DNA of 64,000 bases. Origin: Escherichia phage vB_Eco_mar004NP2. Positions within the stretch are counted from its first letter, which is position 1. Every line of letters starts with the position of its first letter. Shown piece after piece: positions 3,056 to 61,992 of the stretch. The notes below the pieces were generated by a model that saw nothing but the letters and a program-made list of their open reading frames with translations, was not told where the DNA came from and made no database searches. Location of the stretch: the sequence record NC_048205.1. One strand, 5' to 3'. A program made the translations under genes and the position numbers.

Positions 3056-3163
3056 GTATATAGCTGAGGTTATTATTAAACGAATTATACAGGCGATAGC
3101 AATACTTATAATCATTTGTATTGCTATTGGCACAGGATTAGGCATTTTAATTGAAAGTTTTAT

Positions 3164-5287: not shown

Positions 5288-5745
5288 CAGCACTACAACA
5301 ACTACAGAATTACTGGTTTGATAACCAATTTAACGATCTCTTCATCCAGTTGTTTGTCGAAACGAACGGACGCTTCAACTACCGATTCTTTAATAAGTTT
5401 CACGAAACAAAATTCTCGCATACAGAAATTAATGCAGCAATCCAAGACCTAACTGGTTCTAAAGTAATTCAGTATCGTGAAGTAGACTTCACACCAGATT
5501 GTTTTGGGTTTGAATTGTTTAAGAAAGCGTATAAATTTGGTAAGTTTGAGGATGCTCGTCAATGGGTTCATGATTTCTGGTACAACACCGATATTGTCCC
5601 TAGTCGCGTGCTGATTCTTAACTGGATTGCTAAGCAACATCCACCTAAAACGCAATCATCCTTCTTACCGACTGACACAGGAAACCTCTACCATGACAGA
5701 AAAGAAAAACCCATTATTGGAGCAGATGAAGGAGTGGGAGAGTAA
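5284..5745 (+). CDS. hypothetical protein (153 aa)
   Basis: ORF, ATGA overlap with upstream gene. Confidence 0.55.
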   Translation: MTALQQLQNYWFDNQFNDLFIQLFVETNGRFNYRFFNKFHETKFSHTEINAAIQDLTGSKVIQYREVDFTPDCFGFELFKKAYKFGKFEDARQWVHDFWYNTDIVPSRVLILNWIAKQHPPKTQSSFLPTDTGNLYHDRKEKPIIGADEGVGE

Positions 5746-6064
5746 TATTGAAACTGGTCTAATAGACGGTGAAGATATTGTCAACTCCATGCTAGAAGTA
5801 ACAGTAGATAATATTAATCCTATTTTGGCTGGAGAAACCTCAGATCTTATAGGACTCTCTAGCACATTTGATTCTTTGGCTAAATTAGCTTTAGACGATG
5901 AAGATATAACCAAAGAAGATCTCGCTACAGCTATGAATATGGCTATTAATGCTTACATCGGTAAACGTACTGATGAACTTGGTAAACAGATCAATAAGCG
6001 TGATGCTACGCTAGGTCTTATGGAAACGGCCACTATGTTAAGAAGTGGTAAACAACTTCATTAA
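5693..6064 (+). CDS. hypothetical protein (start trimmed to MTEKK)
   Basis: ORF track start 5627 overlaps upstream gene by >100 nt; internal ATG with AGGA upstream chosen. Confidence 0.45.
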   Translation: MTEKKNPLLEQMKEWESNIETGLIDGEDIVNSMLEVTVDNINPILAGETSDLIGLSSTFDSLAKLALDDEDITKEDLATAMNMAINAYIGKRTDELGKQINKRDATLGLMETATMLRSGKQLH

Positions 6065-6071
6065 TTTTAGG

Positions 6072-6104
6072 AGGCCAGGACTTAGTTGTTCTGGCCTTTT
6101 ATGT
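6072..6104 (+). terminator. rho-independent terminator
   Basis: hairpin GGCCAGGAC..TCTGGCC followed by TTTTATGTTTT. Confidence 0.55.
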
Positions 6105-6120
6105 TTTCAAGGAACTTCAA

Positions 6121-6324
6121 ATGCAAGTATATGTCCTTACTAGAGATATAAATGAGTATAATCAGGATGGTGAGTATTTTGTAAAAGTATTCGCTGAAAA
6201 GCCAAGTAAACAACAATTATTAGATGCGGGGGTACCCGAAGACCAGGCTAAGTGTATACTACAAGATAAAGAGTTTACCGGGGATGCTTACGAATGTTTC
6301 TACCTTAACTGTGAGACTATTTAA
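6121..6324 (+). CDS. hypothetical protein (67 aa)
   Basis: ORF after terminator. Confidence 0.45.
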   Translation: MQVYVLTRDINEYNQDGEYFVKVFAEKPSKQQLLDAGVPEDQAKCILQDKEFTGDAYECFYLNCETI

Positions 6325-6325
6325 T

Positions 6326-6772
6326 ATGAGAGAGAAAGTAAATGAATTATTAATCGAGGAAGCTAACAACTTTCCAATAAATAGGTTCATCAAATCGGAT
6401 GGATCTATTAATAGAACTAAAATTAAGCAGCTACATCCCGACTTCCAACAAGAAGCACTAAACCTTATATTTATCAAGAAAGCTGTTGCAGCTCATGGAG
6501 CTTTCTTCGGGTATGAGCGTGTAAATTATAAGACAATGCAACAGCAAGTTGAGATCTATTGTCCAGATCACGATGGTTATTACTGGCAAACTGCTAGATC
6601 TCATTTAGAAGGTCATGGATGTCGACTGTGCGCACACAAGGTTGTGCAGCGTGTCACGGATTATGGAACTTATACCGTACCAGCATGTTACCATAAATTT
6701 GTAATTGACGATAATCATATAGTTTGGTATAATAAGTTTTCAAAGCTAAGAATGGAGATAAGTAGTGAGTAG
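6326..6772 (+). CDS. zinc-ribbon protein with homing-endonuclease-type CxxH..GxGCxxC motif
   Basis: YERVNYKTMQQQVEIYCPDHDGYYWQTARSHLEGHGCRLCAHK; same motif class as ORFs at 24721-25394; start trimmed to ATG 6326. Confidence 0.45.
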   Translation: MREKVNELLIEEANNFPINRFIKSDGSINRTKIKQLHPDFQQEALNLIFIKKAVAAHGAFFGYERVNYKTMQQQVEIYCPDHDGYYWQTARSHLEGHGCRLCAHKVVQRVTDYGTYTVPACYHKFVIDDNHIVWYNKFSKLRMEISSE

Positions 6773-7055
6773 CTATATTGTATGGTCAAACCCACTAGCA
6801 GCACTTAGTAACAAACTATTTAAAACAACGTGGGGGTATAATGAAATAGACTTAGGTAGTCGCCCAATACCAAACAAACACCCCTTAGTTCCAGAGCTGT
6901 ATAAGGTAGTGATAAATGGCACGGAGTATTTGGTTGATAAATTTGACAGAAAACGTTTACTAGAGGGTATCTACGATAATTCTACATCGATAAATGAATT
7001 AGTAGAACATGCCCAAATATACGATAAGAGCTGGATGTTAATATGGAGATCATAG
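6765..7055 (+). CDS. hypothetical protein (96 aa)
   Basis: ORF. Confidence 0.5.
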   Translation: MSSYIVWSNPLAALSNKLFKTTWGYNEIDLGSRPIPNKHPLVPELYKVVINGTEYLVDKFDRKRLLEGIYDNSTSINELVEHAQIYDKSWMLIWRS

Positions 7056-7276
7056 TAATTATTTTAGCAGTTATGTTATTTATTGTAACATTTGTATCGT
7101 TTGCTATTATGCGCAGAGCTATAGAACTAGCGGAAGATATAACAAAATTACGCGGTGAGTTGGCTGCTCTTAAACTACAACGTGAAGCCCTCAAGCTATT
7201 TGTAGCTCAAGGTAGCGTAGAGCATACAGCAGAAGACTTCATCATATATCTCAAACGTTACATGGGAGTTAAATAA
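7043..7276 (+). CDS. small membrane protein with coiled coil (77 aa)
   Basis: N-terminal TM helix plus heptad-like helix. Confidence 0.5.
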   Translation: MEIIVIILAVMLFIVTFVSFAIMRRAIELAEDITKLRGELAALKLQREALKLFVAQGSVEHTAEDFIIYLKRYMGVK

Positions 7277-7461
7277 TGGAAACTCTTTTTCTTTTAATGC
7301 TCGTAGGTTCCTTGCTAGTTATATTAGCACTTCTACTGATCTGCAATATTCTTAATAATAAGAATCTAGAGCTAAAGTGTGAGAACCAAATCCTTAACCG
7401 TGAACTTAAACAATATAATCTAGCAGCCCATAAACTGTTAGACAAACTGGAGAATAAATAA
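7276..7461 (+). CDS. small membrane protein with coiled coil (61 aa)
   Basis: TM helix LFLLMLVGSLLVILALLLI plus helical tail; coupled start. Confidence 0.5.
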   Translation: METLFLLMLVGSLLVILALLLICNILNNKNLELKCENQILNRELKQYNLAAHKLLDKLENK

Positions 7462-8063
7462 TGTTTACACAACAACCTATTCAAGTAGTACCAGACCATG
7501 AACTGAACACATGGGATTATAGCCTTAAAGATTTAACTGCTACTGTACAATTCAAATCTATGAAGCTAACATTTGCACACACTGACCTTAGAGCCTGTAA
7601 AGATCTTGAAGGTAAGCTCGAAGATGCTCGTAGGATTTTTGGCACGGCTCGCATCCCGGCTGATAACCTGATTAATGCACTAATCGATGCGGGATACAAA
7701 CTCGTGAAGACTGAGGTGAACCGCCCCAATACTCCAGTGACTATTAGAGACCCGTGGCAGTCAGGGCCAAATACAATGTGGAACAGCCCTAAAATAACGT
7801 CGGATTTGCACAATGTTCCTTGTGGGGGTGTGGTAAGTAGTACGAAGTCATATAAGTTTGGTGAAGATTATGGGCCTTCTGTACAGTTAAAGCATACCCA
7901 AGAAGCTCTTGAATCTGACATGAAAAGCGTAGCGCCTGCGGATACTGAAGGTTTTAGAAGTCCCATCTATGTTACTCACTTTAATAATCTTAGACCTGGG
8001 AGTATAAATGATACTATCCTTGAGGCGTTGGGAGCTGCTCTTAATGAGAGTAAAAAGGATTAA
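7461..8063 (+). CDS. hypothetical protein (200 aa)
   Basis: ORF, ATGA-type coupling. Confidence 0.55.
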   Translation: MFTQQPIQVVPDHELNTWDYSLKDLTATVQFKSMKLTFAHTDLRACKDLEGKLEDARRIFGTARIPADNLINALIDAGYKLVKTEVNRPNTPVTIRDPWQSGPNTMWNSPKITSDLHNVPCGGVVSSTKSYKFGEDYGPSVQLKHTQEALESDMKSVAPADTEGFRSPIYVTHFNNLRPGSINDTILEALGAALNESKKD

Positions 8064-8143
8064 TAATTTCCTAATACATGAGCCTCTACGGAGGCTCTAA
8101 AATAAAAAGAAGGTCATCCAGACCTTAAAAACGGGAGATAATA

Positions 8144-9028
8144 ATGTATAACTTTAAAGATAAACTAAGACAAAATGCTGGTAAAACAAAACCTAAAGAG
8201 AATAATAATGTTCCTAATGCCAAAGTATTACCATTTCCAGAACTGTCTCAAGAAGAAAAAGATAAGTTAGCATTTATGTTTGATGCTCTTCTAGGGCTAA
8301 GTGGACGTTTATATTCCTCACTCAATATTAATGAGAAACGTCTAGTAGAGATGTTCTGTAAACGTTACCAAGTTACTTCAAAGGGCAATTCTTATAAAGA
8401 AGGTGAAAAAGCATTTACAGTCTTAAAGATTAGCGCATATGCACATCGTTTCTTAGTTTATGGATTGCAAATGGAATACTTCACCATCCCATCATTTAGC
8501 TCTTTCCATATCTTTGAAGATGAACGAATGAATATTGATGATCTCTATGGGGATACGTACAAATACTCAGGAAGTCCATTCCACGATGCATTAAGGAGCT
8601 ACCCTACTAGTTACTTACCAGTTAGGGCATCTCAAGGTAAAGCTAGCGTTTTTGCTGTTTACTCAGGATCTAAAGCATCGGATCTAGAAACTTATATATT
8701 TAAAGAGCGTAAATCTGTACTTCCAGATGAAGCATTGTATAGCAATCCATTGCTTCCAGAAAAAGAACCAGAGAAAATTGATGTAACCCCACCAATCCCA
8801 TCTGATTCTCAATATTTAATTTATGAGAAACAAGTTAAGTTATCCCTAGAAATTGGGTTAGTTACACCGCTTGCTGCAGCGTTCATAAATAGATACCTAG
8901 AAATCCCAGATGAGTTCCACCAACGTTATAATACGAATATTCAGATAACGGATGAATTAATTGCGTTAGCAAAAGATACACCTACTGACACTGAGGCGTA
9001 TCAAAAAGCATACCAAGAGTTATTATAA
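8144..9028 (+). CDS. hypothetical protein (294 aa)
   Basis: ORF with RBS GGGAGA. Confidence 0.6.
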   Translation: MYNFKDKLRQNAGKTKPKENNNVPNAKVLPFPELSQEEKDKLAFMFDALLGLSGRLYSSLNINEKRLVEMFCKRYQVTSKGNSYKEGEKAFTVLKISAYAHRFLVYGLQMEYFTIPSFSSFHIFEDERMNIDDLYGDTYKYSGSPFHDALRSYPTSYLPVRASQGKASVFAVYSGSKASDLETYIFKERKSVLPDEALYSNPLLPEKEPEKIDVTPPIPSDSQYLIYEKQVKLSLEIGLVTPLAAAFINRYLEIPDEFHQRYNTNIQITDELIALAKDTPTDTEAYQKAYQELL

Positions 9029-9561
9029 TATTCTGCATGTCTCGGTGCACAATACCTGTACCGAGACTCAAATACAAACTCTCGTTGACAGATAGCTAAA
9101 TGTATGTTATCATAACTCTATGAGTTAATAGAATTAACCATTTAGAGTTGCCACACAGAAGGTGTGGTGGTTCAGTAATTTAAAATTACTAACTTGTAGC
9201 GGAGGATACGGAGCGACAGGACAAGTTAATAAGTAATTTAATATAAATTGCTAGAAACATCACGAGACCTTCTGGCGGGGGCAAAGCTCTATATGAGAAC
9301 CCTGGGGGATCTTATATTTAAAATAAAAGTAAAACTTTTGACCATATAATTTACATTCAAGATGATACACCTGTTGCCGCTCATCTGCTAGGATGGCACA
9401 ACACTTTCTTCTAGACTCCTAAGTTTCTAGGAAAACTCTTACACTCTAGGGCAGTTTCTCTCCAACGTTACATATCCTAGGCCGGTTTAATACAGGGCGG
9501 TTATTGGGAGGGCGGTTATTTCTAGAAGACATTTTTCCAAAACACATTTCCAGAAATTACT

Positions 9562-10163
9562 GTCGGATTCGCACATTGTGTTTCTAGAAATTTATGGTCG
9601 GATTTGCACAATTGCCTAAGTTTTCATGGACACATAATCTCCTGAAAATGGCAGCATTATTTCGGGCCGAAGGCCCATGATTGCCTGAGTTTTTAGAGCC
9701 ACAAGAATTTTCACTTGTCAAGCTATTTTGCCACCTTTAGCAAATAAAATTTTACTTTATCTCCACTAATCTCAAATTAACCCAAATCTTCTCAACTCTT
9801 CCCCCAAAAACGCAGCAAATCAGGCGTTGCACGCCACCCATGCTGCTCCTCCAGTTTCTCCACTTATTTTCTCTCGCTCTCTCATCTTCTCCTCAAACCT
9901 ATACAATCACACACCCTCCAATCGAAGTCACAAAAATCTTGTCGGATTCGCACATCTTAATCCTAGAAAAACCGTGTCGGATTTGCACATATCCCACAGG
10001 ATTCGAACGCAGTTCGAGATTGCTGGAGTTTTTGGGAAAATTCATTGTCGGATTTGCACACTATAAAAATTTTTGGGGTCGGATTTGCACACTACCAAAA
10101 ATTGTCGGATTCGCACATACACGCCCGCGCGTAATCCATGGTGGCAAATGTCGGATTTGCACA
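9562..10163 (+). repeat. array of 8 direct 14-bp iterons GTCGGATT(C/T)GCACA
   Basis: copies at 9562, 9597, 9941, 9976, 10047, 10078, 10104, 10150, all same orientation, irregular spacing. Confidence 0.85.
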
Positions 10164-10189
10164 AAAGCGCAGGGCAATTGCCCTGCGCT
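10164..10189 (-). terminator. perfect GC-rich palindrome; likely terminator for the minus-strand cassette
   Basis: AGCGCAGGGCAATTGCCCTGCGCT, 11-bp stem; on minus strand followed by TTTTGTG. Confidence 0.45.
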
Positions 10190-10190
10190 A

Positions 10191-10400
10191 AATACGAATG
10201 ATAATGAGAATCATTCGTATTTAAAAAGCGGAATAAGAATGATAATAGTTCTCATTTAGAAAGTGAAATGAGAATCAATCTCATTTAAGAAAGGGAATGA
10301 GAACTATTCAAAAAATGAAATGATTCTCATTTAAAAAATGGAATGATTATCGGTTAGATAGTGAAATGCGAATGATAATGATTCTCATTTAAGAATGGAA
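10191..10400. repeat. cluster of short palindromes AATGAGA-N-TCTCATT (hairpin/operator-like)
   Basis: at least 5 palindromic units read directly; extra copies at 10727-10747 and 19721-19738. Confidence 0.75.
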
Positions 10401-10420
10401 GCGAGAAACACTATTATTTA

Positions 10421-10530
10421 AGTTACCCACAGACTTATTAACAGCACGATTTGATTTGACAGAATCCTAGCCATTTTGAGGCGTTATCAACAGACTTATC
10501 CACAGCTTATCCTACTGTATAAATATACAG
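10421..10530. repeat. left arm of ~110-bp inverted repeat with DnaA-box-like sites and 16-bp palindrome
   Basis: reverse complement of 14001-14110 aligns with identical blocks AGTTAYCCACA..TTATTAACAGCAC and ACTTATCCACAG..TTATCCTACTGTATAAATATACAG. Confidence 0.8.
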
Positions 10531-10788
10531 TATTCCTACGCAGTGAATAATTCTAATATAGCGTTAAAACGTCCTAAATCGCATTCTAACGCGCTTAATT
10601 TTGATGGGGATACTAAAACAAGGGCAAAATTGGAGGAGGCTTAAAAATTAGTTAGCTTGCTAACGATCACACAAGGCGACACGTAACACCCTAATCATTA
10701 GCAGGCTAACCATCACGGGCGCGGTTAAATGAGAATCACTCTCATTTGAGAATTGGGGGCACTCCCTGGTAGTTGCGCCCCGTTATTA

Positions 10789-10983
10789 TTAGTCTGGTAG
10801 TCGATGCGTGATCTTTTCCTCCTCCCCGTAGGAATCCACCAAATGCTGATAATAACCATCGTGATCATAAATCACTTTATCATACTCGCCACGCTCGACC
10901 GCTTGTCGGTTTTCCGGCGTATCGGGCACGTAAAAAACATCAACCATTGTACTGATTTTGGTTACAACAATTTTATTGCTCAT
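10789..10983 (-). CDS. hypothetical protein (start trimmed to MSNKIVV)
   Basis: ORF; RBS AGGGG before internal ATG. Confidence 0.45.
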   Translation of the reverse strand: MSNKIVVTKISTMVDVFYVPDTPENRQAVERGEYDKVIYDHDGYYQHLVDSYGEEEKITHRLPD

Positions 10984-11085
10984 AATAACCCCTAGTAAAT
11001 ATATTTTTGCCAATAGTGGCGAACGTTATCGCCACCAGCGGAATCATTTGCAGCCTCAACATTACCCGCGAAAATATATATAATC

Positions 11086-11430
11086 TCATTGCGCCACCTT
11101 TCGAAACGCTGTTTCAATACTATCCGCAGTGGATTGAATATACGCGCCTTTCATTATCAGGCGCTCGGTGCATATCTTGCGAAAAATATTAATAAAATCA
11201 TCTTCATTTTCTGCAATTAACGCCTCACCCATGACCTGAACGTCGCAAGATGCAAAGGTCAAAAATTGAAACGCTAGTTCACGGGCAACGACCGCATTGA
11301 TTTTATAATGCGCCTTGCCTTCATAAATATTAATAACGCCCTTATAAGCTGGGGAAAGCTGATTTAAGTAGTTTGCTAGTAATGCCGGACGGCAATTAGC
11401 AACAAAACGATTGCCTTCATAAATTACCAT
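11086..11430 (-). CDS. hypothetical protein (start trimmed to MVIYEG)
   Basis: ORF; RBS GGGGAG before ATG 11430; abuts upstream gene. Confidence 0.5.
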   Translation of the reverse strand: MVIYEGNRFVANCRPALLANYLNQLSPAYKGVINIYEGKAHYKINAVVARELAFQFLTFASCDVQVMGEALIAENEDDFINIFRKICTERLIMKGAYIQSTADSIETAFRKVAQ

Positions 11431-11431
11431 T

Positions 11432-11644
11432 TTATAGCACTCCCCGAAACGCAGCGTAAAAGGTGGCAAAATGTTTAACTGTTTCAGCTATCACGTTGCC
11501 CCGTTTATCGAATTTTTTCTCGGTAACACGGAAGGCGTTTTTATTTCGCGCTACATATTCAATTTTACAATCTTCCCGCTCGAACGTGTTAACGTCCACC
11601 AGCTTAAAGCCTTTTGAACGTGCAAGGGAAACGTTACGAATCAT
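11432..11644 (-). CDS. hypothetical protein (70 aa)
   Basis: ORF. Confidence 0.5.
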   Translation of the reverse strand: MIRNVSLARSKGFKLVDVNTFEREDCKIEYVARNKNAFRVTEKKFDKRGNVIAETVKHFATFYAAFRGVL

Positions 11645-11646
11645 TT

Positions 11647-11796
11647 TTATTCTCCTTTACTAGTCATGCAGCCCAGCAGATAAGAAAATACAGCGATACC
11701 CGCACCAATAATAACCGCGTGAACGCCGAAAGCTATTGCAAAAAGTGATAAAATAGCGCCCAAGATACCTGCTAGAATAGCTCGAAAAATAACCAT
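11647..11796 (-). CDS. small membrane protein (49 aa), not in ORF track
   Basis: perfect RBS AGGAGG 6 nt before ATG; hydrophobic throughout. Confidence 0.45.
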   Translation of the reverse strand: MVIFRAILAGILGAILSLFAIAFGVHAVIIGAGIAVFSYLLGCMTSKGE

Positions 11797-11845
11797 TTGT
11801 GATAGCCTCCTAGTTATCGGGGGATATTATATCCCCCGTTATTAA

Positions 11846-12109
11846 TTACATTAAAACAATTTTTGCAGCTTGTTTTTTGGTGCAATGTTCCGCCTTCAGG
11901 GTATCCAGCAAAAAGCCAGCCGTTTGCTGATCGATTTTATCGGCGTTATATAGTTCCTGAATGGTATTATAGGTTTTAGCAATACCGAACTCCTGCACCA
12001 TTTCATAGATGACAGCACGATTAGATACCCAGCCTTGCGCGGTAAACAGATGACTAGCAGAAGAATAAGCAACCATTTTAAGCCTCCAAATTTTTGGGAA
12101 AATTTTCAA
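11846..12109 (-). CDS. hypothetical protein (87 aa)
   Basis: ORF. Confidence 0.5.
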   Translation of the reverse strand: MKIFPKIWRLKMVAYSSASHLFTAQGWVSNRAVIYEMVQEFGIAKTYNTIQELYNADKIDQQTAGFLLDTLKAEHCTKKQAAKIVLM

Positions 12110-12182
12110 CCGTCCTTAAACGGTGTAAAGGCATTATAACAAAAAAGGCCACCAATTATGGCGACCTTTACAAAACTTTACA

Positions 12183-12677
12183 TTAAACTACTTGTAATGT
12201 TTCAATATTGAAACATCGTTTCAATTCGTCATGCAAAACAGCGTATTCATCCCATCGGGTACTATCAGGGATATAAACAAGCTGTTTTAGTCGGTTTGCG
12301 TATATTACCGCTTTATTTCCGATTATTTCAGCGCCACCATATTTAATAATTAATTTCATGACGGAATTAATAGGATCGCCGCCGTTTACATATGTGCCGG
12401 ATTTACTTAATTGATAATGATAAAGGCTTGCATATACATTATCATTCTCATACCATTCGCCCGTTTCCTCATCTTCATAGCCATCGCTACCAAAACGAGA
12501 AGCATTATCAACAGCCATTTCATGAGCGAAAGCGTCGAGATCCGTACCAGCAGGAACAAAATATTCCTCAGTATTCCCTTCACCGCAATAGCCAGTATGA
12601 CAATCGACCAAAATGATCATATCATGTTTAGCCTTGCTCACTTCCCCTAGCGAAAACCCATATTTTTCCTCAGCCAT
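12183..12677 (-). CDS. hypothetical acidic protein (164 aa)
   Basis: ORF with RBS AGGAGG; Asp/Glu-rich. Confidence 0.6.
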   Translation of the reverse strand: MAEEKYGFSLGEVSKAKHDMIILVDCHTGYCGEGNTEEYFVPAGTDLDAFAHEMAVDNASRFGSDGYEDEETGEWYENDNVYASLYHYQLSKSGTYVNGGDPINSVMKLIIKYGGAEIIGNKAVIYANRLKQLVYIPDSTRWDEYAVLHDELKRCFNIETLQVV

Positions 12678-12742
12678 TTATTAGCCTCCTATTAATTAAT
12701 AAGGGAATAGTAAAGCGGGGAAACAATCCCCGCTAAATATTA

Positions 12743-13735
12743 TTACTCGCTTTCGGTGCTAGTGGTAAAAGTAGAAATATCGATACCTTTCACCATTTCA
12801 TCAATCATTTCAGCGATGTTAAAACTTTGCACCATTTCTAGCATTGCCGCTTCCATAGCTGCGCCTGCTACCGCTTTCGCTTTCTGGTTATTCGGGGCGT
12901 ACTGGTCAACCGCTACGCTCAGCAGGTTAGCAATAACTACCCGACCAATCGGCGTATCAATATAACCTTTAATCATAAACGGCGCTTTTTTAGCCGCTAC
13001 TTTCGTGATTTGAGTCAATGCAATTTTGCCAGCTTCCAGTTTTGCAGCATTTACAACAGCGGATTTATTAGCGGCAACGATATTAGCGATCTTGGTCATG
13101 GTATTATTTCCTTTGTTTTCAGTAGTTTGAGTGTTAACGCTTTGAGTGTTAGAATTTACAGCATGTTTTTCCGTGTTGTCAATAGGCTGATCTTCCTCCT
13201 TCCAGAAAGAAAAGCCCGCGCTTTCAATATCCCCATCATATACATAAGGGTACACTTCCGACGGTAACAAAAAATTACCGTTATCATCAAAGGCCATTAC
13301 AGCCGCGAAACGATACCCGTCACAATCCGACCGATTCCAGCCAACTGATAAATAACGCCAAAATGAATCAAGAAAATTTTCAATATCATAAAGATCATTG
13401 GGGTTGGCTTCATAATTTTCTATTGAAAAAACTTCTAAGCCTGCCCCAGTATCATAGGCTTTTACTGTGCTACCTTTTACGATTATGAAATCAGTATCCG
13501 GCCCTCGACTAGTGAGCAATTGATAATCTTGATTATATAAAACAAGCGTTGCCCCTTGTTTATATAACGGTAGAAAACTATTCATATCATAGGCATCGAA
13601 ATCACCAAAAAAGTTTTGGTGAATAGTTTCAGCCTTGTTAATAAAATGTTTAATGCTGGTTGTTCTGCTACCGTCCAGCAGGTTACGCAGCGCACCTTTT
13701 AAGACGGTTGCGTTATCTGGTTTATATAGCCTCAT
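12743..13735 (-). CDS. hypothetical protein (330 aa)
   Basis: ORF with RBS GAGGGAGG; first gene of minus-strand cassette. Confidence 0.6.
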   Translation of the reverse strand: MRLYKPDNATVLKGALRNLLDGSRTTSIKHFINKAETIHQNFFGDFDAYDMNSFLPLYKQGATLVLYNQDYQLLTSRGPDTDFIIVKGSTVKAYDTGAGLEVFSIENYEANPNDLYDIENFLDSFWRYLSVGWNRSDCDGYRFAAVMAFDDNGNFLLPSEVYPYVYDGDIESAGFSFWKEEDQPIDNTEKHAVNSNTQSVNTQTTENKGNNTMTKIANIVAANKSAVVNAAKLEAGKIALTQITKVAAKKAPFMIKGYIDTPIGRVVIANLLSVAVDQYAPNNQKAKAVAGAAMEAAMLEMVQSFNIAEMIDEMVKGIDISTFTTSTESE

Positions 13736-14000
13736 TTGTTGGCCTCCCTCGTTAATCGGTGAGTGAATGATAAAGGCAATTTTCTAGCATAGGCAAATAT
13801 TATTTTACCTTTTTATTTTCCTTGCCTAGCGCCTAGTTTTATGCTAACCGCGCAGCGGTACAGTAAAGAGCAAAACACGGTGAAGCCACCAGGGCGACGG
13901 GTGAAGGCTTCACTTTAATATTACCCCACCGCATTTAGCTCGTTAGAAAGCGTTTTAGGCCGCCTAAAATTGATTGCAGTTGTTAACACTACCTTTTTAC

Positions 14001-14110
14001 CCTGTATATTTATACAGTAGGATAACATGTGGATAAGTCTGTGGATAAGTCCTTATATCGTCGCCTATCGTGTCAAATCATTTTGTGCTGTTAATAAACT
14101 TGTGGATAAC
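14001..14110. repeat. right arm of ~110-bp inverted repeat with DnaA boxes
   Basis: TGTGGATAA at 14027-14035, 14039-14047, 14100-14108; palindrome CTGTATATTTATACAG 14001-14016. Confidence 0.8.
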
Positions 14111-14392
14111 TTAAATGATAGTGGTTCTCACTTAGGACGATAGTTTCTTATAGTTATTATTTCTATCGGTTACGATTTCTTATAATTATTATTTCTCATT
14201 AATTTATAAGTATATTATATATCATGAAATAGTTAGTTGGCTAATGAGATTTTCCGTGATTAATAGTCTGCTAACAGTTCCGGCTGTTACAATCCACCAG
14301 CATGATTATCATCCTAGCAACTATTAGTCTGCTATCTTTCCGATGCATACTAACAAATAAAAGTCAATTAATTTATTTCATAAAATAAGTAG

Positions 14393-14425
14393 TTATCCAC
14401 TGGAAAATAAAAGTCAAGTGGATAA
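14393..14425. promoter_or_regulatory. inverted pair of DnaA boxes
   Basis: AGTTATCCAC..N17..GTGGATAACT, perfect 10-bp inverted repeat matching DnaA-box consensus TTATCCACA. Confidence 0.6.
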
Positions 14426-14826
14426 CTAGGAAAATTTCATTTTTGCTTTTGGGGATAAGTTATCAACAAGGCTAGAATGCGCCTAAAACGCCCTATAACG
14501 CGATGAAGTTTTTAGCCATGCCATTGCATTGCCTACCCTCGTTTATCGCTACCACGAGCTTTTTAGTTTTTGTCAAGTAGGGCAAGGCAAATATAAATGA
14601 AAAAATTACTTGCCAACCTGCTGGGTTTTATGGTATTCGCGCGCCCGTTTCCTTTAATTTTAGTGCGCCGCGCCCAGGTCGCCGCACGGTGTCCGGTGGC
14701 ATTTTGTCTTTACGTTTCTTTACAAAAATAAGGTTGCGCCATTTTTACTATTTGCTATTATTTATCTCGTAGGGCGGCAATGACGAACTACACGGCGGGA
14801 AGTTTACCGCCGCGCTCTTTAAAAAT

Positions 14827-15116
14827 TGGGTACATCTTAAAGTCTATCGGCGGTAAACTTATATTATAAGGAATCGCAGATATGAAACAAACTTTATTGA
14901 TCACTGGTAAACCAGCTAAAAAATTAGATGGTACTACTAAAAAATTGTTGACAATAGCCCAGCAATCCGTAAAATACCGATTTGCTCAGTACAAGAAAGG
15001 CCGCCAGCAGGGTTTAGAAATGATCTGGCGTAATATTATGATCGACCTGAAAGAAAATCATAAAAAACTGCAAAAAACAGTTTGACACCCTAGCCGATAG
15101 GCTTTAAGATGTACCC
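14827..15116. repeat. 24-bp inverted repeat pair flanking the 67-aa gene
   Basis: GGGTACATCTTAAAGTCTATCGGC (14827-14850) versus GCCGATAGGCTTTAAGATGTACCC (15093-15116), 1 mismatch. Confidence 0.7.
14882..15085 (+). CDS. small basic protein (67 aa)
   Basis: ORF with RBS AAGGAA; Lys-rich. Confidence 0.5.
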   Translation: MKQTLLITGKPAKKLDGTTKKLLTIAQQSVKYRFAQYKKGRQQGLEMIWRNIMIDLKENHKKLQKTV

Positions 15117-15315
15117 AGTTCGATGAGAGCGATAACTTGATACAATTTGACGGTTAGGTGATTCCCCATAAATCATCCTGCCCCCTAACTGGGATATAGC
15201 AGCCTGCGTGGAGTTCCTTAAATTGATTATAGCGGTGAGCGGATTGTTGCTTATTACCTGCTACTTTCTAGCAGGTAATGCGGAACAATCCCCTAAATAA
15301 CTTGGAGTTTATACT

Positions 15316-15567
15316 ATGCAAAACGTTATTACCGCGCCTAAAATTGGTCAATCCGTTTTTATTCCTTTCGTTACTAAAACGGATGAACTAACCGGAAAAG
15401 CCGAACGTATTAAAGGTGCGGCGCTTATGCCGTTTGATACAATCGACGCGGTATACGCTGAAAATGAACGTAGTAACAACGGCAAAACCGTTTTTAGCGT
15501 TCGCGTTAAATCCGGCGACGTTGTAAAGGTTGTACAGCGTAACGAAAAATGGGAAGCTGTAGCGTAA
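15316..15567 (+). CDS. hypothetical pre-early protein (83 aa)
   Basis: ORF with conserved upstream box ..CCCCTAAAT..GGAGTTT.. Confidence 0.55.
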   Translation: MQNVITAPKIGQSVFIPFVTKTDELTGKAERIKGAALMPFDTIDAVYAENERSNNGKTVFSVRVKSGDVVKVVQRNEKWEAVA

Positions 15568-15663
15568 TAGTGTTACTTTTATATCCCCCAGTAGTTCGGG
15601 GGATATAACGATTAACATTATGTTAATCTTATCCCTTAAATTAAACTAATAGGAGTTTTTACC

Positions 15664-16071
15664 ATGACTAACGTTAAAACCGCAAAATTTGCTTGGAATG
15701 AAGAAAACACTCAAAAAGCTGTTTCTATGTACCAGCAGTTAATTAATGAAAACGGTTTAGATTTCGCAAATAGCGACGGTTTAAAAGAGATTGCAAAAGC
15801 AGTGGGCGCGTCTTCTCCCGTGTCTGTTCGCTCAAAATTGACCAGCGCAAAAGCGTATCAGAAAAGCGATAAGCCTCGCAAAGTTGGCGGCGGTAGCTCA
15901 ATCCGCAAAGCTCACTATGTACGCGTTATCGCTAAACATGCTATTGATTCCGGCATTATTAAAGACGCCGACGATCTGGCAAGTCTGGAAAGTGCAAAAC
16001 TTGAAACGCTGGACGCCGTAGCGCAACTGTTAGGCGTTGCCGATGAAGTAAAACAGGCCGCAGGTGAATAA
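15664..16071 (+). CDS. hypothetical pre-early protein (135 aa)
   Basis: ORF with conserved upstream box. Confidence 0.6.
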   Translation: MTNVKTAKFAWNEENTQKAVSMYQQLINENGLDFANSDGLKEIAKAVGASSPVSVRSKLTSAKAYQKSDKPRKVGGGSSIRKAHYVRVIAKHAIDSGIIKDADDLASLESAKLETLDAVAQLLGVADEVKQAAGE

Positions 16072-16127
16072 ATTTAATTAGTGGGGAATATTCCCCACTA
16101 TAATTTCCCTTTGACTGGAGTTTTAAA

Positions 16128-16325
16128 ATGATCTTTTACCCCACTGAATCGTTAATTTTAGGCTTATTTATTATGGCGGCCTCGTTATTATTCGCTTATT
16201 TTCAAAATGATTTAGACTCATATTATTTTAAACGTAAGTCTAAATTGGCAAAGCGTTTAGGTCTGATTTGTTTTATTGCCGCCATTGCTTGTGGTGTTAG
16301 TTCTAGCCTTATGCCTTTAAATTAA
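16128..16325 (+). CDS. small membrane protein (65 aa)
   Basis: two hydrophobic segments; conserved upstream box. Confidence 0.5.
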   Translation: MIFYPTESLILGLFIMAASLLFAYFQNDLDSYYFKRKSKLAKRLGLICFIAAIACGVSSSLMPLN

Positions 16326-16422
16326 TGTTGCAAATTATAACGCCTATTATTCAAGGCGTTATATTTGGCAATATTTGCCAATAACAAACGTTTTTTAATC
16401 CCTTTAATGGAGTTTTATTAAT

Positions 16423-18087
16423 ATGATTATTTCCGCAGAAAAACAAACCGTTATCCTGAAAATGGCCGCTGACTTTAATTTCTATGGTAAACGTCTGCGC
16501 GCTACTAAACTGGAGGTCTGCGACGATATATCAAAAGCGGTCTACGATACAACAAAACACTCGACCGCTATCTGCGACTGGTTGGAAGCAAATAAACCAG
16601 CTAAACCGAAAGCGGCGAAAGTAGCAAAAGCCATTAAAAACGATGAGCGTCCAGAAGCGGCGGGGATTGTTTCTAGCACGGTTGAGCAATGGGAAGTAAA
16701 GCAGGGTAAACGCTTTATTATTACGTCGATTCAGAATAATACTTTCCCGCATAAAAACTTTTTAGCCTCATTGGAGCAATTTGCTAAATATATCGGCGCT
16801 GATTTGCTGGTTAGCAAGTTTATTTATAACAAAAACGGTTTTCAAAATGGCGAGGGTGCAGAAGGAATAAAATATGATTCCGCATTTGACAAATATATCT
16901 GCAATAAAAACGTGTTTTTAAATAACCGCCGTTTTGCTTTCATGGCTGAAATTAACGTTTTGCCAACCGCAGATTATCCGCTTTCTGGATTCGCTGAAAC
17001 TGCAACGGCGCTTAATCTGGAAGGTCTGGCAATTGGTCACGCTAAAATTACCGCTGAAAGCGTGCCAGCTTTAAAAGGTGAAGTAGTGCGCCGTATGTAC
17101 TCAACCGGAACGGCAACGCTCAAAAACTACATTCAGCAGAAAGCAGGACAAAAGGCCGAGGCGCTGCATAACTTCGGTGCGCTAATTGTCGAGTTCGACG
17201 AGGACGGGGAATTTTTTGTACGCCAGCTCGAAACGATGGACGAAAGCGGGGTATTTTATGATCTGAATGTGTGCGCTACTCCTGCCGGATGCTATGAGAC
17301 ATCGGGGCATGTTTTAGGCTTGCAATACGGCGATATTCACGCAGAAAAACTAGATGATGATTGTGCCGTTGCGTCATGGGCTGGCGAAAATAGCTTGCTT
17401 GATATTCTCAAGCCTAAATATCAGTTTATCCATGACGTGCATGATTTTACATCACGCAACCATCACAACCGCGCATCCGGTGTATTCCTAGCAAAACAAT
17501 ACGCCGCCGGACGTGATAAGGTATTAGATGATCTTATCGATACGGGGCGCGTGCTGGAATCAATGGAACGTGATTTCTCGCAAACAATCATTGTTGAATC
17601 TAATCACGATTTGGCGCTATCCCGTTGGCTTGATGATCGTAATGCTAACATTAAAGACGATCCAGCAAACGCGGAACTATATCACCGCCTAAATGCCGCG
17701 ATTTATGGAGCTATTGCAGAAAAAGACGATACTTTCAACGTGCTAGATTATGCGCTGCGCAAGGTTGCAGGTTGTGAGTTTAACGCCATTTTTCTAACTA
17801 CTGACCAATCTTTCAAGATTGCAGGCATTGAATGCGGCGTACACGGTCACAACGGCATTAACGGCAGCCGTGGCAATCCTAAACAATTTAAGAAATTGGG
17901 CAAATTAAACACCGGACACACTCACACCGCCAGCATTTATGGCGGCGTGTATACCGCTGGCGTAGCTGGTAGTCTGGACATGGGTTACAACGTTGGCGCG
18001 TCAAGCTGGACGCAAACGCATTTAATTACCTATGCAAACGGTCAGCGCACTTTGATTGACTTTAAAAACGGTAAATTCTTTGCGTAA
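16423..18087 (+). CDS. A1: A1-like pre-early protein (554 aa)
   Basis: size and position next to dmp-like gene as in T5 pre-early region; GDIH and GHNG motifs compatible with phosphoesterase-like fold (recalled, not searched). Confidence 0.6.
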   Translation: MIISAEKQTVILKMAADFNFYGKRLRATKLEVCDDISKAVYDTTKHSTAICDWLEANKPAKPKAAKVAKAIKNDERPEAAGIVSSTVEQWEVKQGKRFIITSIQNNTFPHKNFLASLEQFAKYIGADLLVSKFIYNKNGFQNGEGAEGIKYDSAFDKYICNKNVFLNNRRFAFMAEINVLPTADYPLSGFAETATALNLEGLAIGHAKITAESVPALKGEVVRRMYSTGTATLKNYIQQKAGQKAEALHNFGALIVEFDEDGEFFVRQLETMDESGVFYDLNVCATPAGCYETSGHVLGLQYGDIHAEKLDDDCAVASWAGENSLLDILKPKYQFIHDVHDFTSRNHHNRASGVFLAKQYAAGRDKVLDDLIDTGRVLESMERDFSQTIIVESNHDLALSRWLDDRNANIKDDPANAELYHRLNAAIYGAIAEKDDTFNVLDYALRKVAGCEFNAIFLTTDQSFKIAGIECGVHGHNGINGSRGNPKQFKKLGKLNTGHTHTASIYGGVYTAGVAGSLDMGYNVGASSWTQTHLITYANGQRTLIDFKNGKFFA

Positions 18088-18143
18088 ATAATTAATCCCC
18101 TAGCGGCTTGAAATATAGCCGCTATTACAGGAGCTAAATTAGA

Positions 18144-18401
18144 ATGAAAGTTACATTACCCAAAACGCTAGACGAAAAAGCATTTATTTCACCGGATGAA
18201 ATGGAATCCGATAAAGTTTACAGCTTCGGGCCTATTCTAGCCGCCAAAACTAATACTGATGGGATTATTACGGTCGATTATCGTGATAATGATATTGTAC
18301 CCTTTGACGATGATGGTGCTTTTTATGAGTGGCTAAGCGATAATAATTTACCCGTAAACGGTGAATTAACGCCGTACCAGATGCAGATTATTATCAAATA
18401 A
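18144..18401 (+). CDS. hypothetical pre-early protein (85 aa)
   Basis: ORF. Confidence 0.5.
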   Translation: MKVTLPKTLDEKAFISPDEMESDKVYSFGPILAAKTNTDGIITVDYRDNDIVPFDDDGAFYEWLSDNNLPVNGELTPYQMQIIIK

Positions 18402-18439
18402 ATTAAATCCATTATTAAACTAATTGGAGTTTTATAAAC

Positions 18440-18832
18440 ATGAAAAAGCAAAATATTCCATTTGACCGCGCTCAATCCTCAATTGTTCTGGTTTATTCTA
18501 ATGGTGAGCGTTACCACGTCGAGGCGGGGCACGTTATTGATGAATTGCTAGATTTCAATGACGCTTTGCAGGTTACAACATTTGCATATATGCAAGGCAA
18601 ACTAACTAGCCATATTAAAGCAAAAGGCGTTTATGTTGACACGGTGAAACAAGAAACGATTATCATCGACGCAGTAAAATCCGGTCTAACCTTTGCAGTT
18701 GTCGCGCCTTGCCCCGCTTGCCTTGATGATCAATTGATTTCTGCAAAAGTATATACTTGTGCGGGGATTCGTTCCCATGTATCAGGTGAGGATGTTAGTT
18801 TTATCGCCGATGCGTTGGCTTATGGTCTTTAA
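18440..18832 (+). CDS. hypothetical pre-early protein (130 aa), possibly A2-like by size
   Basis: ORF between A1-like and dmp-like genes; assignment positional only. Confidence 0.5.
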   Translation: MKKQNIPFDRAQSSIVLVYSNGERYHVEAGHVIDELLDFNDALQVTTFAYMQGKLTSHIKAKGVYVDTVKQETIIIDAVKSGLTFAVVAPCPACLDDQLISAKVYTCAGIRSHVSGEDVSFIADALAYGL

Positions 18833-18911
18833 TAGTTAATTTATTATTACCCGCTTATAAATAGCGGGTAATGCTGAATTAATCTAATCCCTTAAATGGA
18901 GAACGTAACAA

Positions 18912-19646
18912 ATGAATAAAGCTATCATGAATCTTTCCCGCAGCTTCCCGCATATTTCCCGCGTCATGATTTGGGATTTAGACGGCACTATCATTAATTC
19001 TTTCCATCGTGTAGCACCCTGCTTTGATAGCGAGGGCAATTTAGATTTAAATAAGTATAAAAATGAAGCGTGTAAACACCATTTAATAATGCAAGATACT
19101 TTATTGCCATTGGTTGAATATATGCGCCAGTGCATGAATGACGCAAATACTTTAAACATTATTTGCACCGCTCGACTGATGAGTAAGTCGGACTATTATT
19201 TCTTGCGTAAACAAGGGTTGCGCGGTCGTGGTAATAGTAATATCCGCGTATTTTCCCGCGATACACTACACAAATATTTTAAAGCTGATAAGGTTAGCGA
19301 AATATACCACAGCAAAGACGCAGTATATAAATCTTATTATTTTGAATTATTTAAACAGTTATATCCTAACGCTGATTTTACAATGATTGATGATCATAAA
19401 GGCGTGCTATCAGCGGCAGCGTCATACGGATTTAAAACGCTGGACGCACAAGCCGTTAATGATATTCTATCAATCGGCGTGGCATTGATAGGTGAAACCT
19501 TTATTGATGAATCTCTCGACGATGATAATGATTATCAATTCCTAGCTGACCGTTTAAAATTATGCTGGGAAGGTATGACCGAGGAAGAACGCGCAGAATA
19601 TAGTTGCAGTCCTCAACAATATATTGAGAAATTAAAAGTTGCCTAA
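18912..19646 (+). CDS. dmp: HAD-family 5'-deoxyribonucleotidase (dmp-like)
   Basis: N-terminal HAD motif I MIWDLDGTI; 244 aa. Confidence 0.7.
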   Translation: MNKAIMNLSRSFPHISRVMIWDLDGTIINSFHRVAPCFDSEGNLDLNKYKNEACKHHLIMQDTLLPLVEYMRQCMNDANTLNIICTARLMSKSDYYFLRKQGLRGRGNSNIRVFSRDTLHKYFKADKVSEIYHSKDAVYKSYYFELFKQLYPNADFTMIDDHKGVLSAAASYGFKTLDAQAVNDILSIGVALIGETFIDESLDDDNDYQFLADRLKLCWEGMTEEERAEYSCSPQQYIEKLKVA

Positions 19647-19798
19647 CAATTAAAGTTGAAATAGTCACGGTGTGTAATGATACCATGCCGTGACTATTAG
19701 CCTGCTAAGTACCGGGCGGTAATGAGACTCATTCTCATCTGGGGGGCCACTGGACACACCCACGCGTACGTAATCCAAAGAAATTGGCAAAAGTCAAA

Positions 19799-60523: not shown

Positions 60524-61992
60524 ATATCGCTGGCCTGTTCACCTGTTGAATTTTCAGCTTTGTCTTTCTTAGCACGTTTAGATTGAGCCGGCTTATCCTT
60601 CTCAATAGGGATAACGAACTCAGCTTCCATTTGAGATATATCTTCCATTGCTAGGTTGGTAGTGTTATCCATCCGCAGGGTTTCCCAGTTCATTTTAGGC
60701 ATAAACTTCACGCTATCAGAAGAACGAGTCTTAACGAAGTCAAACATAATAGCACCTTGACCATTATCAGCTTTTGCAGCATTAAGATTAGCAGCCATGT
60801 CTGCAGAATCAAGAATCCCCTTTGACATACGTGTTCTACCATCTTGATCGATCTGGTAAGGAGCTACACCAGCCACGTTATGTTTCTGGCAGATGGATTT
60901 GAAAGACGAGCTAACAACCATCTGTTCTTTCCAGTCATACATATCAATGGTTTTAGAGTCTGGAAGTCTGGTTTGGTTAATATAGTCCAGTAAAGCTACT
61001 GTAACTTTATCCCCATATCTAGCAACTAATTTATTTAATTCTACATCAACTGTTGTAATAGACAGCTCAGGGTCATAAACAATAATCATAGGAGTATGTA
61101 GCTCATACCCTTCTATTAGCTTACTCTCCATATCGTAGAAATCACTCATCTTAGCCATTGTGTACTGTTTAACGAAGTTGTCGAAAAGCTCTTCACCACC
61201 ATTAAACATTCTAGCTCTAGTTCTGGCTAATCTCAACAGAGCTGCACCTTCTAGAGTATTATTACGCATTGCTAGTGCTGATACACCAGCTAACATGGCT
61301 AGATTACGTCTAAATACTTCATGTTCTTTCATCTCAATTGAGAAGTATGGAGCAATATCTCCATTCAAATATTGCTGAACCTGTATGTTTGAACAGATAA
61401 TGGATTTACCAGTACCACGCCAACCACCAAGCAGTAACGTTTCTGTGCGAGCTAAACCAATTTGAGCGTCGAACTCATTACAAATACCAAGAGCGATTAA
61501 ATTCAGTTTGGTATCTTCTTCTCTCTGGAAAATACGCATGTTATCTGCGTTGAATACTTTTCCAGTATTCGTTACTTTCTCTTCTAATTTTAAGTGAAGG
61601 GAGGCAACTCGGTTGAGAATTTCTCCCTGATCCAGCATTGTTAAATCTTGAAGCACGTCTGTTTCTAGAAGCTTCAGGAATAAATCCTGTGTATATTCAG
61701 CCTCTAGGACTTCAAGTGCCTGTTCCATGCTCACTTCTGGAATTTGAGTGTTAGCTAAGACGACTAGAGCTTGAGAAAGGCGGGCGTTTCTATTAGCTTC
61801 AAGCATAAGTGCGTCAATGGACGGCATTGTGTTATATTTTTTATAATAATTCTGGACGGCTTGGTAAATTGAGGAGAAAGCGTCATTAAAATGATCTTTA
61901 TGCAGTTTTGAGAATGTTTCCAATGCTATTTGCTTCTGTTCGGAAGCTAGAAGCATCTTCAACACTACAGCTTGCACGTTAAACAAGGTCAT
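60520..61992 (-). CDS. replicative helicase/RecA-fold ATPase (DnaB-like)
   Basis: Walker A GGWRGTGKS; start trimmed to MTLFNV with RBS AAAGGAGA. Confidence 0.65.
   Translation of the reverse strand: MTLFNVQAVVLKMLLASEQKQIALETFSKLHKDHFNDAFSSIYQAVQNYYKKYNTMPSIDALMLEANRNARLSQALVVLANTQIPEVSMEQALEVLEAEYTQDLFLKLLETDVLQDLTMLDQGEILNRVASLHLKLEEKVTNTGKVFNADNMRIFQREEDTKLNLIALGICNEFDAQIGLARTETLLLGGWRGTGKSIICSNIQVQQYLNGDIAPYFSIEMKEHEVFRRNLAMLAGVSALAMRNNTLEGAALLRLARTRARMFNGGEELFDNFVKQYTMAKMSDFYDMESKLIEGYELHTPMIIVYDPELSITTVDVELNKLVARYGDKVTVALLDYINQTRLPDSKTIDMYDWKEQMVVSSSFKSICQKHNVAGVAPYQIDQDGRTRMSKGILDSADMAANLNAAKADNGQGAIMFDFVKTRSSDSVKFMPKMNWETLRMDNTTNLAMEDISQMEAEFVIPIEKDKPAQSKRAKKDKAENSTGEQASDI

Follow-up and report, generated by a model that had tools for sequence, protein, structure and literature searches.

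The halt of phage T5 DNA injection at 8% of the genome, and its later resumption, have been an open question since the 1960s. The first-step stop precedes any phage protein synthesis, as established by the classical chloramphenicol experiments. In this study, we analyzed the corresponding region of Escherichia phage vB_Eco_mar004NP2, in a stretch of 64,000 nucleotides from record NC_048205.1 (hereafter the window; all positions are in whole-window numbering). Its subject is a pair of inverted repeats, here called arms, which carry DnaA-type boxes and each end in a putative LexA (SOS) box, together with the 3.5-kb operon that lies between them.

The injection-stop mechanism is described as still poorly understood in the literature of 2026. 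For T5, record AY543070 labels the kilobase around the repeats 'injection stop signal (iss)', and record AY587007 annotates inverted repeats C (6022-6060), D (6112-6152), D' (9332-9372) and C' (9424-9462) as well as palindrome D (9330-9349). In a comparison of 25 phages, Davison (bioRxiv 10.1101/866236) described two copies of 131 bp, in which eight DnaA/DnaA* boxes form pairs with 3 bp between the partners and the spacer is always 52 bp long; the coding region that separates the copies varies and is poorly conserved. The same preprint credits the first DnaA box to a paper of 1987, draws the analogy to oriC and puts forward membrane-bound DnaA as the factor that retains the DNA at these sites. 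T5 replication origins were reported near the middle of the genome.

The arms of the window share with the T5 elements IRC-spacer-IRD and IRD'-spacer-IRC' their sequence, length (131-132 bp), position in the terminal repeat, blocks, box pairs and 52-bp spacer, and also palindrome D at the inner end, the adjoining DRD/DRC repeats and the nick palindrome. They differ from T5 in that all eight boxes are present (seven in T5), and the operon contains a gene for a 164-aa protein that T5 lacks. By homology, the arms are thus a T5-family element that was already annotated and discussed, and the repeats themselves, as first noted from the bare sequence, add nothing new. The original prediction had further read them as the borders of an invertible or mobile module, or of a recombination-generated insertion in the first-step-transfer (FST) region.

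Results

Anatomy of the arms

The inverted-repeat comparison returned one standout pair, 10399-10530 against 14002-14133, of 132 nt and 80% complementarity with 3471 nt between; the runner-up in the region has only 48 nt at 71%. The repeats, first put at about 110 bp, are therefore real and slightly longer than proposed. The two near-identical blocks seen earlier were recovered as an outer block with 39/46 and an inner block with 45/50 identical positions (38/40 in its IRD part), separated by a divergent spacer core (22/36). The features of the arms are as follows.

10399-10530, plus strand: iss-side arm, orthologue of T5 IRD'-spacer-IRC' (AY587007 9332-9462).
10423-10443 and 10484-10504: DnaA-like box pairs of the iss-side arm, with a degenerate third box at 10507-15.
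10513-10532: LexA-like box TACTGTATAAATATACAGTA, T5 'palindrome D', 19/20 to consensus.
14000-14019: second LexA-like box, reading TACTGTATAAATATACAGGG on the minus strand, 18/20 to consensus.
14002-14133, minus strand: A2-side arm, orthologue of T5 IRC-spacer-IRD (AY587007 6022-6152).
14028-14048 and 14089-14109: DnaA box pairs of the A2-side arm.

Each arm aligns to its own orthologous T5 copy, and the iss-side arm is 90% identical to T5 9332-9463. Their placement is also that of T5: the iss-side arm stands beside the iss direct repeats and the nick, just downstream of the end of the rightward operon, and the A2-side arm sits between the two divergent pre-early operons, in a gap of roughly 1.1 kb.

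The DnaA boxes that had been noticed in the repeats were confirmed, as all four perfect TTATCCACA boxes of the 64-kb window fall within the 264 nt of the arms (10496 on the plus strand; 14028, 14040 and 14101 on the minus strand). When one or two mismatches are allowed, the number of boxes per arm rises to four, as two pairs with a 3-bp gap (10423/10435 and 10484/10496; 14028/14040 and 14089/14101). This gives eight DnaA/DnaA* boxes in four pairs, the pairs being 61 nt apart from start to start across the 52-bp spacer. The loose DnaA consensus TTWTNCACA is not enriched window-wide (9 against 7.6 expected), and only the clustering of perfect boxes is significant. Box pairing and polarity are identical in all lineages compared. 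Like the oriC, datA and DARS clusters, the arms combine same-orientation 9-mers at a short fixed spacing with a mixture of consensus and near-consensus boxes; unlike these, they are without evidence of an unwinding element or of replication initiation, and their boxes are spaced by 3 bp.

The spacer has features of its own. TTGAC stands at its center (10456-10460 and 14072-14076), where the surrounding spacer diverges, and occupies the same spacer position in nearly every arm examined, the exception being the A2-side arm of Pectobacterium phage My1; no properly spaced -10 element follows it. The outer spacer half (about 10435-10465 and 14067-14097 in the window; loci L001-L059) occurs in two forms, TTATYMACAG-CAC... 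and TTATACAwww-TGTAAA..., which are mosaic across arms and lineages: T5 has one form per arm and the window the same form twice. This mosaic suggests old, occasional short-patch exchanges. No Rfam family reached its gathering score anywhere in the 64 kb, and no structured RNA was found.

A candidate LexA box at the inner end of each arm

On the inner side, both arms end in the palindrome CTGTATAAATATACAG, which lies at 10515-10530 and, as the reverse complement, at 14002-14017. The 16-bp palindrome of the original prediction is thus present in both arms, but it is imperfect, with AA at its center, and in the left arm it extends to the 20-bp TACTGTATAAATATACAGTA. This longer sequence differs at one position from TACTGTATATATATACAGTA, which we take to be the SOS-box consensus. 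The pattern CTGT-N8-ACAG occurs four times in the window against 0.77 expected, and none of 100 shuffled sequences reached four; two of the four matches are the arm palindromes. The other two (61050-61065 and 61381-61396) lie 330 bp apart, have matrix scores of at most 12.6 and are probably due to chance.

A position weight matrix was built from six operators, each verified at its place upstream of recA, lexA (two), sulA, umuD and uvrA in MG1655. With this matrix the arm sites score 27.8 and 23.4 bits, compared with 18.7-25.8 bits for the genuine operators. An 18-site matrix, in which twelve sites are unverified, gives 25.8 and 22.5 for the arms, 17.4 for the next site in the window and 17.8 for the best site of 20 shuffles. 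Phages of eight host genera were compared, infecting E. coli, Salmonella, Yersinia, Klebsiella, Pectobacterium, Serratia, Proteus and Vibrio. Every arm has exactly one LexA-like box, at its inner end, and the rest of the loci has none; the distance from this box to the DnaA-type boxes is constant (17 and 29 nt). CTG..CAG is intact in all 73 distinct sites, and variation is limited to the center and the flanks, as in natural operators.

Among 64 distinct arms, the center of the palindrome is AA in 46, TT in 17 and TC in one, and never TA or AT, although a TA center would make both a perfect palindrome and a perfect LexA consensus. Either the center flips as a unit, or perfect symmetry is selected against. 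In Yersinia phage phiR201 (L051) the inner block is duplicated on the iss side, with full-score LexA-like boxes at 6615 and 6716, 101 bp apart; the IRD' duplication of this phage is mentioned by Davison (bioRxiv 10.1101/866236).

The E. coli LexA operators, such as those of recA, umuDC and sulA, share with the arm boxes a 20-bp palindrome, the invariant CTG...CAG and a TA-rich center, and the arm sites score above verified operators. In contrast to these operators, the arm boxes overlap no recognizable promoter, are fused to tandem DnaA-type boxes at fixed spacing and form an inverted pair on phage DNA, with 1.6-4.3 kb between its members. The palindrome is a near-consensus candidate LexA box, and this resemblance has apparently gone unreported: LexA and SOS are absent from the Davison preprint (bioRxiv 10.1101/866236), and no paper in the searchable literature links LexA to the T5 iss. 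The 1987 paper and a review of 2015 lie outside that scope, so an earlier mention is possible.

Conservation and dispensability of the arms

Arm identity was compared in 25 genomes. It is 0.725 within genomes and 0.719 between genomes, which gives no signal of concerted evolution and argues that the likeness of the arms is kept by selection rather than by frequent exchange. The inner block is about 0.90 identical in every comparison, orthologous or paralogous, whereas the spacers are arm-specific (0.71 between orthologous and 0.55-0.57 between paralogous copies). The iss-side arm is the better conserved of the two, its outer block being 0.90 identical against 0.72 in the A2-side arm. Between the Markadamsvirinae (window, T5 and BF23) and the other lineages, the A1 protein is 44-75% and the A2 protein 37-66% identical, so the cis element, with its inner block at about 90%, evolves far more slowly than the phage proteins. 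Across the eight host genera, the arms are also more conserved than the coding sequence that they enclose, and their box spacing is invariant. Vibrio phage VCPH keeps 55 nt of the inner block (L062, 500-553) at 91% identity to a Klebsiella phage. Its second LexA-like box lies at 3145, about 2.6 kb away and upstream of A2, and the genes between its boxes are on the strand opposite to A2/A1.

A preprint of 2026 reported that a T5 deletion named 'hegG to 017' is viable and forms smaller plaques. Mapping of its primers on AY587007 places the deletion at about 5393-9081, so that IRC-spacer-IRD and the whole operon are gone and IRD'-spacer-IRC' is kept. This shows that the A2-side arm is dispensable in T5. 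Therefore the geometry of the arm pair is not essential, and the iss-side arm is the primary one. According to Davison (bioRxiv 10.1101/866236), Type 4 phages lack the A2-side arm, and a second FST band was reported long ago close to where this arm lies.

Orientation of the operon across the family

Synthetic junctions of a flipped cassette and the native junctions were queried against 50,697 phage records at a coverage of at least 80%. The native left junction was found in 249 records and the native right junction in 159, and the inverted form of either in none. As this DNA test is blind to distant lineages, protein-level mapping was added: the window proteins were mapped onto distant relatives, with profile searches as confirmation.

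Four proteins of the window, those of 330 aa and 164 aa and the T5.015-like and T5.017-like ones, have homologues that are encoded on the A2/A1 strand in reversed map order. This arrangement is seen in Pectobacterium phage My1 and in Klebsiella phages, namely Boggle, KpGranit, Spivey and two IMG/VR contigs. My1_019, My1_018, My1_017 and My1_016 match phrog_4263, phrog_6741, phrog_4379 and phrog_6973 at E-values between 1e-33 and 1e-95, and all four families also occur in the window; for KpGranit the match is strong to phrog_4263 and phrog_6741 and weak to phrog_4379. Within the flipped operons, the gene order along transcription is preserved. The arms with their DnaA boxes enclose these operons in the usual polarity, and no change is seen in the genes outside. 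The flipped junction is common to about 80 Klebsiella records, and the T5-type arrangement is found in Serratia phage Kamaji and Proteus phage RP7.

Neighbor-joining trees of A1 and of A2 both give (Proteus,(Serratia,(My1,(Sugarlandvirus,Markadamsvirinae)))), on which two inversion events are needed; a weak tree of the 330-aa protein would allow one. The operon thus appears to have flipped at least once, and probably twice, in the evolution of the family. Since the divergence of the 330-aa protein tracks the backbone, a flip in place is favored over separate acquisition. At the level of protein homology, the mapping shows Sugarlandvirus and My1 to carry an inversion of the operon with gene turnover, and not the 'replacement' read by earlier work; we found no account of an operon inversion in the searchable literature. 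This comparison supports recombination between the arms in the course of evolution: with the arms in inverted orientation, rare homologous exchange would have flipped the operon that they enclose. Spacer identity in the flipped lineages did not locate the crossover, as the A2-side spacer is in place and the iss-side spacer is too diverged to tell.

The arms were found in all 534 related records, in two or four places each, and no empty site was seen. The distance from arm to arm ranges from 1.6 to 4.3 kb among relatives, with gene gain and loss, and only the content between the arms varies. No 4-12-bp direct repeat, and hence no target-site duplication, stands at the outer ends of the arms. 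Relatives do not all carry the same genes in the same orientation. The geometry first proposed holds and recombination across the arms in evolution is supported, but a programmed or ongoing inversion, or mobility, is not.

Genes between the arms

By homology, the 'cassette' corresponds to T5 genes 011-017, which form the rightward pre-early operon. Matches to the region occur in about 475 T5-like phages, and its identity to Salmonella phage PMBT29 is 98%. Gene identities were assigned by homology and by the AY543070 locus tags.

10789-11013, minus strand: T5.017 homologue, phrog_6973; the likely start gives 64 aa.
10992-11117, minus strand: doubtful open reading frame (ORF) of 31-41 aa, phrog_22819, BF23_00017; overlaps a truncated T5.016-like frame (10973-11089).
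11086-11469, minus strand: T5.015 homologue, 114 aa from MVIYEGN, Ung-dependent AP-site nickase; phrog_4379, labelled 'unknown'.
11432-11644, minus strand: T5.014 homologue, 70 aa; phrog_4227, which carries the nickase label.
11647-11796, minus strand: T5.013 homologue, 49 aa, two hydrophobic segments.
11846-12109, minus strand: T5.012 homologue, phrog_5145, probably 76 aa.
12141-12169, minus strand: intrinsic terminator, homologous to the T5 terminator annotated after gene 011.
12183-12677, minus strand: 164-aa protein, phrog_6741; in BF23, My1 (My1_018) and Klebsiella phages, not in T5.
12743-13735, minus strand: T5.011 homologue, 330 aa ('37 kD pre-early protein'), DUF7566, phrog_4263; first gene of the operon.
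13741-13819, minus strand: promoter of this operon, matching at 96% identity the promoter that the T5 annotation places upstream of gene 011.

Eight minus-strand ORFs between the arms match phage protein families, where seven genes had been counted before; of the eight, the ORF of 41 aa is doubtful. The genes on either side have plus-strand orientation, in agreement with the opposite-strand cassette first described, and those to its left are early genes outside the terminal repeat. Profile searches found no recombinase family among the eight ORFs, nor any transposase or invertase, as the original prediction had stated, and the only Pfam match is DUF7566 in the 330-aa protein. These genes had been called devoid of recognizable function, which does not hold for the homologues of T5.011, T5.013 and T5.015, for which phenotypes are published. 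According to published work on T5, genes 011-017 are dispensable, 011, 013 and 015 have toxic effects on E. coli, and the last of these three encodes an Ung-dependent nickase; T5.013 is annotated with two transmembrane domains and is toxic or lytic on expression. The T5 promoter upstream of gene 011 was characterized experimentally. The arms flank a dispensable and variable operon.

The label 'endonuclease nicking abasic sites generated by host Ung' sits on phrog_4227, the T5.014 family. From the AY543070 locus tags and the cloning primers 15ATG/15Stop, the true T5.015 is the 114-aa protein MVIYEGN...FRKVAQ of phrog_4379. The nickase label is apparently off by one gene and on the wrong family, and it has been copied into many GenBank records.

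The surrounding first-step-transfer region

The window is the reverse complement of the canonical T5/BF23 map, with a single collapsed terminal repeat. Placement of the locus in the FST region of a T5-like phage, as proposed at the outset, was borne out by mapping of the terminal repeat onto T5 and BF23, and both arms lie inside it. The T5 iss maps to about 9766-10797 of the window.

9555-10170, plus strand: TGTCGGATTYGCACA repeat array, reverse complement of T5 'direct repeat D', within the annotated injection stop signal region.
9696-19770: terminal repeat (FST DNA) of about 10 kb; boundaries from BF23 and T5 by blastn, approximate and by homology only.
10167-10188: palindrome GCGCAGGGCAATTGCCCTGCGC, homologue of T5 palindrome J, which carries the 7.9% major nick site (CCCTGCGC).
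10190-10420, plus strand: GAGAATCATTCTCATTTAAG-type repeats and palindromes, T5 direct repeat C and palindromes E-I.
14390-14470: extra DnaA-like boxes outside the arms, as the inverted pair TTATCCACT at 14393 (plus) and 14417 (minus), with further boxes at 14450 (minus) and 14460 (plus); T5 'Repeat Region 1'.
14882-19646, plus strand: leftward (canonical) pre-early operon, with homologues of hdi/T5.008 (14882-15085), T5.007 (15316-15567), A2 (15664-16071), A1 (16423-18087) and dmp (18912-19646).

A 139-aa ORF at 9840-10259 (plus strand) lies wholly inside the injection-stop direct-repeat arrays. Several relatives annotate small ORFs there; it is probably not a gene.

Discussion

The arms are best read as conserved cis-acting repeats of the T5-family FST DNA that are predicted to serve as landing pads for host proteins at the injection-stop region, a reading we favor with some, but not strong, confidence. 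Each arm would be an array of fixed geometry, in which two DnaA-type box pairs and the 52-bp spacer are followed by a consensus-grade putative LexA operator at the inner end. Upon DNA entry, host DnaA, as proposed by Davison, and LexA, as proposed here, both already present in the cell, might load onto the arms and form a nucleoprotein complex. Potentially, this complex marks or holds the FST DNA at the injection-stop region until phage A1 and A2 allow the second step, with the iss-side arm as the primary element and the A2-side arm as an auxiliary copy. The arms evolve more slowly than the phage proteins and the stop precedes phage protein synthesis; therefore, the ligands are expected among conserved host proteins already in the cell, a description that fits DnaA and LexA. 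Protein binding and a role in the injection pause are both inferred. That the palindrome is a genuine LexA operator, held at fixed spacing from the DnaA boxes in all sampled Demerecviridae, and that the arms also served the inversion of the operon, is a more tentative proposal, to which we give somewhat less than an even chance.

Several points weigh against such a host-protein landing pad. Binding of DnaA and LexA at the arms is a prediction from sequence, and half of the 'DnaA boxes' are off consensus by one or two bases. Of the 18 sites in the larger LexA matrix, only six were verified in sequence. No annotated T5 promoter and no convincing promoter overlaps the LexA-like boxes (weak consensus hits at 13983-14010 and 10524-10551), which argues against a classical operator. 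A protein bound to DNA that is already inside the cell does not obviously stop further entry. Finally, T5 grows on recA hosts, so cleavage of LexA is not an obligatory step.

Alternatively, the arms might be binding or cleavage sites of A2, or of A1 and A2 together, through which the injection block is released or the genome is cut and circularized, the likeness to DnaA and LexA sites being incidental. Davison's model, with A1/A2 as a 'restriction enzyme', lists palindrome D among the candidate cleavage sites. A 20-bp palindrome would suit A2, a dimeric protein that binds double-stranded DNA, and both A1 and A2 are required for second-step transfer. However, A2 has diverged to 37-66% identity between the Markadamsvirinae and the other lineages, yet the inner block and its palindrome stay at about 90%; the palindrome varies where natural SOS boxes vary, and its CTG/CAG triplets never do. 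Moreover, the stop comes before any phage protein and so cannot itself depend on A2. We regard this explanation as unlikely. Quite unlikely, in our view, is a purely transcriptional boundary, at which host proteins on the arms would insulate or regulate the divergent pre-early promoters and block read-through of a toxic operon, with no role in transfer. The position of the arms, one in the gap of about 1.1 kb between the divergent operons and the other just past the operon end, would fit such a boundary, as would the toxicity of several operon genes and the known action of LexA and DnaA as transcriptional repressors or roadblocks. Against this, about 180 bp separate the LexA-like boxes from the gene-011 promoter and none of the annotated promoters overlaps them, the flipped lineages swap the promoter and terminator ends of the operon relative to the arms and yet the arms are unchanged, and deletion of one arm together with the operon has only a mild phenotype.

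A programmed invertible segment or mobile cassette, in which the 3.5-kb module flips or moves at the arms within phage populations, is highly improbable, even though 132-nt inverted repeats bracket an opposite-strand operon, the homologous operon occurs in both orientations in the family with variable content between the arms, and the inner-end palindrome with its asymmetric 2-bp center superficially recalls the crossover sites of invertases. An active switch was rejected because no invertase or integrase is encoded in the cassette, inverted junctions were found in no record against 249 and 159 native ones, the arms are not homogenized within genomes and the orientation is fixed per lineage, with all of the about 80 Klebsiella records flipped. 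A mobile element was rejected for want of a transposase, a target-site duplication and an empty site in any of the 534 related records, and a recent insertion because what lies between the arms is the canonical pre-early operon, as in T5 and BF23. A programmed switch or transposon is thus excluded as far as sequence data can exclude it. The invertible segments Mu G, P1 C, Salmonella Hin and e14 Pin likewise have inverted repeats that bracket genes found in both orientations, which here holds between distant lineages only. Here, in contrast, there is no invertase and no mixed orientation among close relatives, the 26-bp crossover sites are replaced by 132-bp arms full of sites of host-protein type, and the enclosed genes are not alternative tail-fiber or flagellin sets. 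The arms could also be a functionless relic, left by an ancient inverted duplication and retained by chance or only because its copies recombine with each other. The A2-side arm is indeed deletable, and degenerate or missing in some lineages; however, arms that outconserve the coding sequence between them across eight host genera, at invariant box spacing and with no higher identity within than between genomes, make a relic scarcely credible.

Conclusions

The repeats are the best-conserved part of the injection-stop region, in which the responsible cis element has so far been only a map region. Across the family, the flipped operon amounts to a natural experiment, as the orientation of the operon is irrelevant to the arms. 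Because, in addition, one arm is dispensable, attention narrows to the iss-side arm. Two records are corrected by this study: the operon of Sugarlandvirus and My1 appears inverted rather than replaced, and the 'Ung-dependent nickase' label apparently stands on the wrong family. Beside DnaA, LexA is now a new, concrete and testable candidate ligand. If this proves true, the injection-stop elements of T5-like phages would be composite landing pads for two host proteins, and the pause between the first and second step, or the handling of first-step DNA, would be tied to the SOS and replication-initiation machinery of the host.

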